DNA from: a virus
Length of the DNA stretch: 38,884 nt
Virus genome (UHGV): UHGV-0130462
Strand: one strand, 5' to 3'
Every line of letters starts with the position of its first letter. The first letter of the stretch is position 1. Below the pieces are notes generated by a model. The model had not been told where the DNA came from. It did no database searches and saw only the letters and a list, made by a program, of their open reading frames with translations. The translations under genes and the position numbers were made by a program. Shown one piece after another: positions 23,267-26,469 of the stretch.

Positions 23267-23291
23267 AAAAAGCCCCGCTATTGAGCGAGGC
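23267..23291 (-). terminator. rho-independent terminator overlapping the Rz stop codon
   Basis: Minus-strand RNA: GCCUCGC-UCAAUA-GCGGGGC followed by U5. Confidence 0.5.
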
Positions 23292-23733
23292 ATTCAGTGT
23301 TGATGTAATTCTGCAAATACAAAGTTTGCTGTTCGTTCTCGACTATCATTTCTCTGAGACGTAGATAATCTTGTTCAACTGCTTTGTTAAGTCTTGCGGT
23401 GGTTTCATTGCTTCCGCTTTCGGTGGAATTTTTGGTGACTGCTGGACACTCGGCTTTGATGTACACCCGCTTATTGCCAGAGCTAACAGCATCACGAAGA
23501 GTGTTGATTTCATTCTTTGCACTGGCTAACTCCTGAGTGTATTTAATATCGAGTTGATTTAGTCGAGTGATACGAGCTTGGTAGTCTTTGTTGATTTCGA
23601 CTTGTTGAGATAGTTGACTAGTTAATTCAGCATTTGAAGCTTTTAGCTTACCAATCCTGTTACCCTGCCACGTCATACCGACGCTCATCATCAAAATAAC
23701 GCCCACGGACACTATCGTTTCGCCTAGATTCAT
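23278..23733 (-). CDS. Rz: i-spanin (Rz-like)
   Basis: N-terminal TM segment then coiled-coil periplasmic domain; last gene of the lysis cassette; ATG 23733 overlaps the upstream stop (ATGA). Confidence 0.8.
   Translation of the reverse strand: MNLGETIVSVGVILMMSVGMTWQGNRIGKLKASNAELTSQLSQQVEINKDYQARITRLNQLDIKYTQELASAKNEINTLRDAVSSGNKRVYIKAECPAVTKNSTESGSNETTARLNKAVEQDYLRLREMIVENEQQTLYLQNYINTECLAQ
23346..23513 (-). CDS. Rz1: o-spanin (Rz1-like lipoprotein) embedded in the +1 frame of Rz
   Basis: MKSTLFVMLLALAISGC lipoprotein signal with lipobox, then a Pro-rich 38-aa mature region; fully nested within Rz. Confidence 0.75.
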   Translation of the reverse strand: MKSTLFVMLLALAISGCTSKPSVQQSPKIPPKAEAMKPPQDLTKQLNKIIYVSEK

Positions 23734-24146
23734 AACAACAACCATGCATCTTCAAATACTTTTGGGCTGTAAGGCTGATAACCCAGCTCAACACCAACAA
23801 TCGCTGTGCCCAATGCAATCATAACTTCTTTTTTGTTGACTGATACACAATCTTCCGTACTTACATTCAATTCTTTAGCGACTCGATGAATGTATCCCTC
23901 AGTATTATTTTCTTTGGGCGGAGCATAGCGATTGATGATTTCACGGATAGAACATAACCCGTATTTCTTTTCGTAGGTTCGCATCAATACATAGATTGCT
24001 CGTATACCATATTCAGGTGATACGAATTGGCAAAAGTCTTTATCGGTTTGCTGTGCAGATAGTCCTTGCCATTTTGAACCGTGTCGAATATTACCAGGGT
24101 TGTTGTTTCTTTCCCCGCGTGCTGGTCTAGTCATCTTTAACTCCAA
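23730..24146 (-). CDS. putative endolysin (assigned by position between holin and spanins)
   Basis: Overlaps the holin stop and Rz start; family not recognised from sequence alone. Confidence 0.5.
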   Translation of the reverse strand: MELKMTRPARGERNNNPGNIRHGSKWQGLSAQQTDKDFCQFVSPEYGIRAIYVLMRTYEKKYGLCSIREIINRYAPPKENNTEGYIHRVAKELNVSTEDCVSVNKKEVMIALGTAIVGVELGYQPYSPKVFEDAWLLL

Positions 24147-24483
24147 ACTTAGCCTTTACTATTTTGACCGCACCCTCAAAAAGTGCGTATAGTTTCTTTG
24201 TCCCTAAGAATCCAATTACAACACCACAGAATTCCGCCAATAATGCCCACGAACTAGCATCACCACTACGTGATAGCCACCAATCAATAAACCGAATAGT
24301 TCCAACACTAAGCAAGCCACACATAACAGCCTCACCTAAAGAACGCTTCCATTGAGAACCAGCCTGTCTTTCTCTGATGTATGCAATTGTTGTAGCAATA
24401 GTAAATCCACCTAAGAGTGGGAGGACCGATTGTAACCAGCGTAAAATCTGCTCCCATTCGAATTTTTCTGGCATACGTTTCAT
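24127..24483 (-). CDS. class I holin, lambda S-like, with dual-start motif
   Basis: MKRMPEK... N-terminus and AYIRERQ...MCGLL...IRFIDWWL parallel lambda S; two in-frame ATGs separated by Lys-Arg (24483 and 24474); GGAGG upstream. Confidence 0.85.
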   Translation of the reverse strand: MKRMPEKFEWEQILRWLQSVLPLLGGFTIATTIAYIRERQAGSQWKRSLGEAVMCGLLSVGTIRFIDWWLSRSGDASSWALLAEFCGVVIGFLGTKKLYALFEGAVKIVKAKFGVKDD

Positions 24484-24583
24484 ACCCACCTCCCCATAGG
24501 AGGAATTTAGTTAATAGAACGCCGACTCACAGCTCTTGTGTGAACGTGAGGTGTTGTGATTGATTCTGTGGTCGGCATATACG

Positions 24584-24607
24584 AAAAAGCCCCACTAAAA
24601 GTGAGGC
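24584..24607 (-). terminator. rho-independent terminator between the KilA-N gene and the holin
   Basis: Minus-strand RNA: GCCUCAC-UUUUA-GUGGGGC followed by U5. Confidence 0.5.
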
Positions 24608-24627
24608 TTGCTATAAGTGATTCATAA

Positions 24628-25395
24628 TTACTCTGGGGCTGGTAAGGCTAATATTATATCATTCAGATGAGGTAATGCTTCTTTATCTTTACCCTTAAAG
24701 TAAGTTATTGATTTATTCTTTATCCAGTTGTTAATTTCAAAATTAAACATTGTCATTAACTCATTTGGATAAAGCCTTGCCTTAACAACTGGTCTTCTTC
24801 CATCATCAAATTCATGCTCATAAACAGGAAATGAATCAGGATCATAACCTCTAGCCCTGAGAATATCGCTAAAGAATCTACCTAAAGATATGTCAGGCAT
24901 AAGTTTTTGTGGGAGCATATACCCTCTAGATTCTAATGGAGCTAATAACTTTAAAGTCATTTGATCCAGCATAGAAAAGTGAGTTGGCGGTATTTTTTCC
25001 CGATTAATTAAGTAACGCCTTACATGATATGGCATCGCTGATTGATGCTGTTTTGCACCAGACATCCAATCGAATACCCATTTTGAAACAAGAACAGCGA
25101 ACTTAGGTGAAGCCCATTGACCTAAGTTGATAGCTACCTGAGGATGAACCCAAGTGCCTTGCATTTGAGAAAAACCACCTCTAACTATTTGAATTAATTC
25201 CGATACCGGAATTCCGGTATCGCTCGATAATTCAGCAACAAATGCTTTTGTTGAGTTATTATCAAGGTAATGATTGAGCCTCTTCCCAGCAGCTTGACAC
25301 ATTGCAGTAGCATTTATGTATCCATCATGAGCTCTTTGTGAAATAACTACATTGTTTTCCTGCCTAGAAATTAATGGCAATTCTAATTGGTTCAT
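24628..25395 (-). CDS. KilA-N domain protein with a C-terminal domain of unknown function
   Basis: N-terminal region (...HDGYINATAMCQAAGKRLNHYL...TKAFVAEL...) fits the KilA-N pattern; AAGGAG 5 nt upstream of ATG 25395 (ORF track start 25410 is TTG). Confidence 0.7.
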   Translation of the reverse strand: MNQLELPLISRQENNVVISQRAHDGYINATAMCQAAGKRLNHYLDNNSTKAFVAELSSDTGIPVSELIQIVRGGFSQMQGTWVHPQVAINLGQWASPKFAVLVSKWVFDWMSGAKQHQSAMPYHVRRYLINREKIPPTHFSMLDQMTLKLLAPLESRGYMLPQKLMPDISLGRFFSDILRARGYDPDSFPVYEHEFDDGRRPVVKARLYPNELMTMFNFEINNWIKNKSITYFKGKDKEALPHLNDIILALPAPE

Positions 25396-25470
25396 TACAT
25401 CTCCTTGCAAAAATCCAAATTACATTTTATGACAAGAAGATATAAAGCTAAAGGCAAATTAATATATACG

Positions 25471-25492
25471 AAAAAAGACCGCCTAAGCGATC
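25471..25492 (-). terminator. second late-leader terminator
   Basis: Minus-strand RNA: GAUCGC-UUAG-GCGGUC followed by U6. Confidence 0.5.
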
Positions 25493-25587
25493 TTCTGAAT
25501 GAGTTGTTCGGAATAACCGAATATGTGAACTATCCGGAAATTCCGGAGAGTTGAACTTGTAACGATTGCTTACAGGTTGCAGATAAC

Positions 25588-25609
25588 AAAAAACCCCGCC
25601 GGAGCGAGG
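25588..25609 (-). terminator. tR'-like terminator of the late leader
   Basis: Minus-strand RNA: CCUCGC-UCCG-GCGGGG followed by U6, about 50-60 nt downstream of the candidate late promoter. Confidence 0.6.
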
Positions 25610-25660
25610 TCTTGAATTCTTTTAACGTTAACGAAATGGCAATAACCCATCGTTAGAACG

Positions 25661-25689
25661 ATATTTACACAGAAAGGTGCAAAAGTCAA
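25661..25689 (-). promoter_or_regulatory. candidate late promoter PR'
   Basis: Minus strand: TTGACT, 17-nt spacer, AAATAT; directly downstream of the Q-like gene. Confidence 0.4.
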
Positions 25690-25713
25690 TTCATTCGTTA
25701 GAAGTATTCGTTT

Positions 25714-26469
25714 TTAATTTGTTACCTTTTTTAGTATGTAATCTGCGTTACTTTCTCCTTTTTCACACTCAACCGCCAATGACTCATAAAATTTACTAAC
25801 TGAACGCTTCCATTGATCAATCGTAATCCCTAAATGAGACACAGCCTGAAAAGCCTTTGATGCAGGTATTCGCTCGTAACCACGACCAGAACAACGCTTA
25901 CAAGGCATACTGACAGCCTCACCGGTTAACCTTAGCGTTTCTTTGTCTATTGCCATACCACGCCCTTTACAGTCATTGCACGCACAAGAAACATAACCTT
26001 TACCGTTACACTTATCACAAGCGCATGACTCGGTGTCATCAATAATGCGAACTTCTTTACCAAAGACTTTTTTAACCTTAATCGCCTTTACCTTAAAACC
26101 TGATCCATTGCACTTTACGCACTCAATAACACTTGATGCCGATCTGCAATAATCTGCATAAGCGAATTTTGCGAGTATTTGCATTACCTTTCGCTTAACA
26201 TTCATATCGAGCTTGCGTAAGGCTGGAACCTTATCGCAATGATTCAATGCATGCCGAGTTAAAAGTTGTATCGCTTTCACTTTGTCATTCTGGCTTATCT
26301 CCATCTTTCCCGAGAACGCAGAAAAGCCGAATGACTCTTTACTCTGACACATACCAAAAGCGCCCATAACATCAGTACCGGTTAATCTATCTGGCGATGT
26401 TGAGCTAGGCGCATCTGATATTGATGTTGTTTTGGCGAAGTGATATTTAACAGCGCTTTCTAGGTTCAT
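25714..26469 (-). CDS. putative late-gene antiterminator (Q-like) with a DnaJ-type zinc finger
   Basis: Four CxxCxGxG repeats (CVKCNGSG, CDKCNGKG, CNDCKGRG, CKRCSGRG); sits between the nin genes and the late promoter/terminator; GGAGG upstream. Confidence 0.5.
   Translation of the reverse strand: MNLESAVKYHFAKTTSISDAPSSTSPDRLTGTDVMGAFGMCQSKESFGFSAFSGKMEISQNDKVKAIQLLTRHALNHCDKVPALRKLDMNVKRKVMQILAKFAYADYCRSASSVIECVKCNGSGFKVKAIKVKKVFGKEVRIIDDTESCACDKCNGKGYVSCACNDCKGRGMAIDKETLRLTGEAVSMPCKRCSGRGYERIPASKAFQAVSHLGITIDQWKRSVSKFYESLAVECEKGESNADYILKKVTN

Follow-up and report, generated by a model that had tools for sequence, protein, structure and literature searches.

A lambda S-family holin gene with a basic dual start and a hairpin over its Shine-Dalgarno site in a P22-like phage of Proteus mirabilis

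The lysis cassette and its surroundings

The virus genome UHGV-0130462, analysed here as one stretch of 38,884 nucleotides (the window), is that of a P22-like Proteus mirabilis phage: over the structural genes it is 93% identical to the Lederbergvirus phage vB_PmiP_Brookers. Its lysis genes follow a Q antiterminator in the order holin, soluble endolysin, Rz/Rz1. Their coordinates, and those of the other features to be discussed, are collected in Table 1.

Table 1. Features of the lysis region, with positions in the window
Feature	Position	Strand	Remarks
Long holin reading frame	24127..24483	(-)	From ATG1 (24483-24481); 118 aa, MKRMPEK...; predicted antiholin-type product, comparable to lambda S107
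Short holin reading frame	24127..24474	(-)	From ATG2 (24474-24472); 115 aa, MPEK...; predicted active holin, comparable to lambda S105
N-terminal extension	24475..24483	(-)	ATG-AAA-CGT (Met-Lys-Arg); two extra positive charges in the long form
Shine-Dalgarno site	24487..24493	(-)	GGAGGUG; single site for both starts; anti-Shine-Dalgarno duplex -12.2 kcal/mol
sdi-like hairpin	24489..24503	(-)	CCUCCU-AUG-GGGAGG; 6 bp, -7.3 kcal/mol; 3' arm is the Shine-Dalgarno site
Second hairpin	24470..24486	(-)	GGUAUG-AAACG-UAUGCC; weak; would join the regions of ATG1 and ATG2
Conserved structured late leader	24505..24588	(-)	Directly upstream of the sdi-like hairpin; also L001 2745-2830 and L046 2640-2715
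Endolysin candidate	23730..24134	(-)	134 aa; PHROG 873 'endolysin', E=1.6e-48
Rz-type inner-membrane spanin subunit	23278..23745	(-)	PF03245, E=1.2e-29
Rz1-type outer-membrane lipoprotein spanin subunit	23346..23522	(-)	PF06085, E=1.8e-10; inside the Rz gene, in another frame
Terminator-like hairpin and T-run	24587..24609	(-)	Separates the KilA-N/BstA-like gene from the holin leader
KilA-N protein	24628-25410	(-)	260 aa; best PHROG match 'BstA abortive infection system', phrog_6287, E=9e-48
Q-type late antiterminator	25714..26469	(-)	PF03589, E=2.4e-34

Holin and endolysin candidate are closely joined: the ATG of the latter overlaps the holin stop codon (ATGACTAG), which is the TAG at 24129-24127 (-). 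The 134-aa protein has no Pfam match; it begins MTRPARGERNNNPGNIRHGSKWQG, with no N-terminal hydrophobic, signal or SAR segment. (A side note: the same protein also matches domains that lie within tape-measure and tail-injection transglycosylase proteins.)

The gene that separates Q from the holin encodes a KilA-N/BstA-like protein (PADLOC BstA match, E=4e-11) and has a terminator-like hairpin on either side, at 25613-25590 and 24609-24587. BstA homologs in the literature are typically found downstream of the prophage repressor (PMC8585504), and its place in the late leader is therefore a different context; the Proteus phage Pm34 is without this gene at the corresponding site. The 300-nt gap that follows Q (25588-25695 (-)) holds the first of the two hairpins, a strong one, in a layout that resembles the short pR' transcript of lambda, which ends at tR'. 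Sub-threshold Rfam matches in this gap, to istR, RsmY and the Phe leader, are probably driven by the terminator.

The holin protein

The product is, by its sequence, a lambda S-family (class I) holin. It matches Pfam PF05106 (Phage_holin_3_1, 'lysis protein S') over residues 10-104 with 53.3 bits, as against a gathering score of 23.8 (E=3.9e-14), and PHROG 126 'holin/anti-holin' with E=1.5e-19. In BLASTP it is 28% identical to lambda S (E=7e-9) and 31% identical to P22 gp13 (E=6e-12), and both alignments begin at the dual-start residues. In a 14-sequence alignment of the family, Met4 and Pro5, the first two residues of the short form, are invariant.

Hydropathy places three hydrophobic cores near residues 20-30, 54-63 and 82-95. 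The C-terminal tail is basic (K96, K97, K107, K110, K112, K116), and the N-terminal tail carries a net charge of -2 in the short form (MPEKFEWEQ) and 0 in the long form, a charge distribution that is compatible with an N-out/C-in orientation. An AlphaFold model has four helices, at 10-41, 45-73, 76-93 and 96-112; because its confidence is low (pLDDT 58) it can be read for the helix pattern only.

Two starts behind one Shine-Dalgarno site

A preliminary description of this DNA had pointed to two in-frame ATGs separated by Lys-Arg behind a single GGAGG, and to a longer product that carries extra positive charge. Both observations hold. The minus strand reads 5'-AAAUU CCUCCU AUG GGGAGG UGGGU AUG AAA CGU AUG CCA GAA AAA UUC-3': ATG1 and ATG2 lie nine nt apart in the same frame, and the codons AAA-CGT between them supply the lysine and the arginine. 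The GGAGG core lies at 24493-24489 (-) and is part of a longer match to the 3' end of 16S rRNA, GGAGGUG (24493-24487), whose last paired base is separated from ATG1 by 3 nt and from ATG2 by 12 nt. There is no other good Shine-Dalgarno site for either holin start. (A third start, the GTG at 24489 with which the open reading frame was listed, M-G-M-K-R-M, was considered and rejected; it is not credible because it lies inside the Shine-Dalgarno site.)

How much is such a motif worth? Among the 276 Met positions that open ORFs of at least 60 aa in the window, four (1.45%) begin an M-x(1-2)-M that contains Lys or Arg, while any M-x(1-2)-M is found at 5.1% of them, so that in any phage genome one motif of this kind is to be expected by chance. 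The dual-start motif alone is weak evidence; its conservation is what raises it above chance.

That conservation was followed in two ways. A tblastn search with the holin against a phage collection gave three distant matches only; the comparative loci were drawn from a protein database, GTDB and IMG/VR. The first set consists of 43 related loci from GTDB genomes and IMG/VR, in which the DNA was read at each start; 42 could be assessed, one being cut by a contig edge. Of the 42, 36 retain an upstream ATG that is in frame and comes with Lys or Arg, across protein identities of 36-100%, and the spacer beside this upstream start varies among the relatives in both length and sequence. The window's own M-K-R-M recurs in nine of these loci, M-K-C-M is found in one and M-R-M in 26.

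The other six have no in-frame upstream ATG (L004, L005, L015-L017 and L021, from Morganella psychrotolerans, Providencia stuartii and others; starts near position 3001), and the long form must therefore be dispensable. In L004 an upstream ATG is present, out of frame by one base. The L005 group has an in-frame GTG four codons upstream and a degenerate Shine-Dalgarno/hairpin sequence to which we return below.

The second set is an exhaustive HMM search of 50%-identity cluster representatives, which yielded 56 proteins, of which 54 were read. A basic dual start stands at the head of at least 10 of the 54, where the background rate is ~1.1-1.45% (P ~1e-9; ~13-fold enriched), and an uncharged one at the head of at least 9, for which the background rate is 4.7-5.1% (P ~1e-12); these counts rest on gene-finder starts and are lower bounds. 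Uncharged openings among the PF05106 holins include MSNM, MPHM, MPNM, MNAM and MDPM (P0032, P0034, P0037, P0044, P0055, P0058, P0063, P0066, P0068), and the holin of Proteus phage Pm34 has the uncharged dual start MQNM (L001 2722-2733 (-)). Uncharged dual starts are thus frequent in the family, and two Met codons by themselves are therefore no proof of an antiholin.

A hairpin over the Shine-Dalgarno site

The single Shine-Dalgarno site is also one arm of a small stem-loop. The sdi-like hairpin is seen in minimum-free-energy as well as centroid folds, in contexts of 81, 91 and 132 nt, and its position matches that of the sdi stem-loop of lambda S and of P22 gene 13. The preliminary description of the lambda arrangement, which was right about the starts, the charge and the Shine-Dalgarno site, had overlooked this hairpin, an essential part of it.

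Judged as one sequence alone, the hairpin is unremarkable: z lies between -0.6 and -1.5, 10% of shuffles do as well, and 2 of the 37 leaders in the window equal it. Such single-sequence folding statistics were not taken as evidence by themselves, and the case is comparative instead. Because the leaders vary in the length of their loops and spacers, a MAFFT alignment does not bring the hairpin arms into structural register; hairpins were therefore detected sequence by sequence and set against a null of 190 unrelated leaders from the same loci. This procedure adapts to every sequence separately and does not amount to a formal covariation statistic. In 21 of 22 distinct dual-start leaders it found a hairpin whose 3' arm is the Shine-Dalgarno site, with a stability of at least -5 kcal/mol and an end 3-8 nt before ATG1; the corresponding figure for the control leaders is 9 of 190 (4.7%).

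The pairing is kept while the letters change. At least eight different complementary arm pairs cover the Shine-Dalgarno site among the relatives, lambda and P22: the relatives have CCUCCU/GGGAGG, CCUCC/GGGGG, CACUCC/GGGGUG, CCCAUU/AAUGGG, GCCCC/GGGGU and ACUCC/GGAGU, lambda has AUCCCC/GGGGGU, and P22 has CCUCAC/GUGAGG. Hairpin and Shine-Dalgarno site are degenerate, at -2.1 kcal/mol or weaker, in loci that have lost the upstream ATG (L005, L015-L017, L021); in the L005 group the remnant is CACUU/AAGUG, at -2.1 kcal/mol. This joint loss fits with the two features working together.

(Two further observations on this stretch of RNA. The hairpin loop is itself an AUG. It is out of frame with the holin and opens a 5-codon ORF, AUG GGG AGG UGG GUA UGA, at 24480-24497 (-), whose stop overlaps ATG1 (AUGA); no Shine-Dalgarno site precedes it, and L023-L025 and L033-L034 are relatives whose loop AUG does share the holin's frame. 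Further down, a second hairpin could form across the two starts. Its relevance is uncertain: it is impossible in the M-R-M relatives because their spacing is too short, and, being possible only with the M-K-R-M spacing, it was left out of the mechanism proposed below.)

A proposed mechanism and its competitors

In lambda, S107 and S105 are made from a dual start, and the extra positive charge of the longer product alters its membrane topology and makes it an antiholin (PMC9636201). The sdi structure close to the message's 5' end controls initiation at the two codons and sets their ratio (PMC3359269); holin to antiholin stand at about 2:1, a ratio set by the hairpin just upstream of the starts (bioRxiv 10.1101/2020.05.17.100420).

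It is likely that the gene described here works as a holin/antiholin dual start of the lambda/P22 type, with the product ratio set by its sdi-like hairpin. The use of both starts, the topology switch and inhibition by the long form are taken over from lambda on the strength of homology, and on that footing events would unfold as follows: 1) One late mRNA would offer two in-frame starts behind a single Shine-Dalgarno site that is at the same time half of a small hairpin. 2) Initiation at ATG2 would generate the 115-aa holin, whose acidic N-terminal tail (net -2) would permit N-out insertion of the first transmembrane helix; this protein would build up and in the end provide the soluble endolysin with large holes. 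3) Initiation at ATG1 would generate the 118-aa form, in which Lys-Arg would neutralise the acidic tail, so that the first helix would be held on the cytoplasmic side for as long as the membrane is energised; in that state the long form would bind and inhibit the holin, as an antiholin, until the membrane depolarises. 4) How much is made of one product relative to the other, and with it the timing and sharpness of lysis, would be decided by the hairpin, which sequesters the Shine-Dalgarno site.

The likeness to lambda S107/S105 that the preliminary description had drawn is supported: the protein is of the lambda S family, the same motif stands at the same position in lambda and in P22, and the basic extension is kept in the relatives. 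Its further statement, that the arrangement implies the same lysis-timing mechanism, has homology on its side but is worded too strongly: six relatives do without the upstream start.

Could the message be read from one start only? If ATG1 alone were used, the gene would make a single 118-aa holin in which Met4 is just a conserved internal residue, and there would be neither an antiholin nor any timing by alternative initiation. Considered by spacing alone, ATG1 is indeed much better served than ATG2, its 3-nt gap to a strong Shine-Dalgarno site being near-optimal and the other gap measuring 12 nt; database annotations of close homologs, too, begin at the upstream Met. P22 and lambda share this geometry, however, and lambda uses both starts, with the downstream one predominating. 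Spacing consequently cannot predict the ratio of the products, and an estimate of the holin:antiholin ratio along those lines was discarded, as by that reasoning the upstream start ought to prevail in lambda, which it does not. Moreover, the six relatives that lack an upstream start encode the Met4-type start alone, from which it follows that the short form is a complete holin; Met4-Pro5 is invariant; and a Shine-Dalgarno site sequestered in a conserved hairpin would be an odd provision for a single start. Exclusive use of ATG1 is on these grounds unlikely.

The converse, that only ATG2 is used and that the upstream ATG with its Lys-Arg codons is an accident of the untranslated leader, would be in keeping with a chance rate of ~1.5% for the motif at ORF-opening Met positions, and with the six relatives that have no in-frame upstream ATG, including L004 with its out-of-frame copy. 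An accident should hardly be retained, in frame and basic, in 36 of 42 loci, down to 36% identity and despite a varying spacer, nor be ~13-fold enriched among the representatives of the family; and ATG1 is the start nearest to the Shine-Dalgarno site. We regard this reading as very unlikely. That the inverted repeat at 24489-24503 has its role on the plus strand instead, whether in termination or within an antisense ORF, with no connection to holin translation, is scarcely credible: a consensus scan does mark it as terminator-like on that strand, and mechanically called plus-strand ORFs of 40-48 aa overlap it, but the tail AATTTAGTTA is a poor T-run, the ORFs are short and lie antisense to a gene that is itself well supported, and it is relative to the holin start that the relatives conserve the position of the hairpin.

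The late leader and movement of the holin module

Directly upstream of the hairpin, the lambda/P22-type dual start is preceded by a ~85-nt late leader that is 85-95% conserved among the Proteus phages Pm34, Brookers and BPM-V3. The leader folds on a 13-bp long-range stem (AUGCCGACCACAG / CUGUG-AGUCGGCGU), and the 132-nt leader fold stands out from its shuffles (z=-3.47; 0 of 200 match it). An Rfam scan of 24400-25800, late leader included, gave nothing above the gathering score. The leader could serve in the processing or the stability of the mRNA, or as a joint at which lysis modules are exchanged by recombination.

Directly after the leader's end, '...ttctattaacta', each Proteus phage has a different lysis module. 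Pm34 continues from this point with another lambda-type holin (M-Q-N-M) that has its own CCUCC/GGGGG hairpin, and Brookers with an unrelated lysis module and no such hairpin. Since these phages diverge immediately after a shared leader, it is to the holin gene, and not to the leader, that the hairpin, the Shine-Dalgarno site and the dual start belong.

One can go a step further and think of the three together as a portable lysis timer that is swapped along with the holin at the '...ttctattaacta' joint in P22-like phages of Proteus, with the charge of the extension as the knob by which lysis time is tuned in evolution: +2 in M-K-R-M, +1 in M-R-M and M-K-C-M, 0 in M-S-M and M-Q-N-M, and lost together with a weakened hairpin in six loci. 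This is a tentative suggestion, possible but rather doubtful as it stands.

Annotation and use of the relatives

The locus is a real but ordinary case of a well-known holin/antiholin arrangement and raises no new question. For annotation it calls for a holin/antiholin gene with two starts, after the manner in which RefSeq treats lambda S and S' (both 'holin/anti-holin'), with the upstream hairpin as part of the same feature. The relatives among the Morganellaceae phages may be of wider use, as they constitute a natural allelic series (M-K-R-M, M-K-C-M or M-R-M, or else no upstream start, with a hairpin variant to match each) in which the charge of the extension and the stability of the hairpin can be set against lysis timing beyond E. 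coli and Salmonella.

Comparison with known systems

The dual-start principle is shared across classes of holin. In phage 21 the class II holin S21 is likewise made in two forms, S21-71 and S21-68, and a positively charged extension turns the longer into an antiholin. In phage 21, however, a two-helix pinholin is combined with a SAR endolysin, whereas the present holin shows three hydrophobic segments and is paired with an endolysin that lacks a hydrophobic N-terminus; on both counts membership in the pinholin/SAR-endolysin class was rejected.

Lambda S, like the gene described here, codes for a class I PF05106 holin and has a dual start, a basic residue in its extension and a hairpin that covers the Shine-Dalgarno site; it too lies downstream of Q, with genes for a soluble endolysin and Rz/Rz1 after it. 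Its sequence runs AUCCCC-UUAUU-GGGGGU-AAGAC-AUG-AAG-AUG-CCAGAAAAA. The differences lie in the extension, which is M-K-M (+1) in lambda and M-K-R-M (+2) here, in the protein as a whole (28% identity), and in the KilA-N/BstA-like gene and extra terminator that are interposed between Q and the holin in the present phage. How sdi biases the choice of start in lambda was reportedly worked out by Blasi et al. (1989/1990) and Chang et al. (1995).

The M-R-M holins of Morganella, Providencia and Proteus prophages (from IMG/VR and GTDB: L003, L014, L019-L044) are homologs at 36-75% identity; they have the dual start, the basic residue and the hairpin over the Shine-Dalgarno site in common with the gene described here, and differ from it in their single Arg and in the sequences of the hairpin arms.

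P22 gene 13 offers another close parallel. It belongs to the same Pfam family, gp13 opens M-K-K-M with two basic residues between the Mets, as here, and the 3' arm of the hairpin is again the Shine-Dalgarno site; both genes are found in P22-like (Lederbergvirus-type) phages. P22 reads CCUCAC-GGUC-GUGAGG-UAAGAC-AUG-AAA-AAG-AUG-CCAGAAAAA, and at the downstream start P22, lambda and the present gene all have ATG-CCA-GAA-AAA. P22 has its two starts 4 and 13 nt from the Shine-Dalgarno site, lambda 4 and 10 nt from it, and the present gene 3 and 12 nt. The two P22-like phages also differ: the proteins are only 31% identical, with Lys-Lys in P22 and Lys-Arg here; the arms are CCUCAC/GUGAGG in the one and CCUCCU/GGGAGG in the other, and the spacers UAAGAC and UGGGU; the hosts are Salmonella and Proteus. 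Steiner and Blasi (1993) are said to have found that more positive charge at the N-terminus makes for stronger inhibition. If that effect carries over, an extension with a charge of +2, like that of P22, would make the long form of the Proteus phage holin a strong antiholin.
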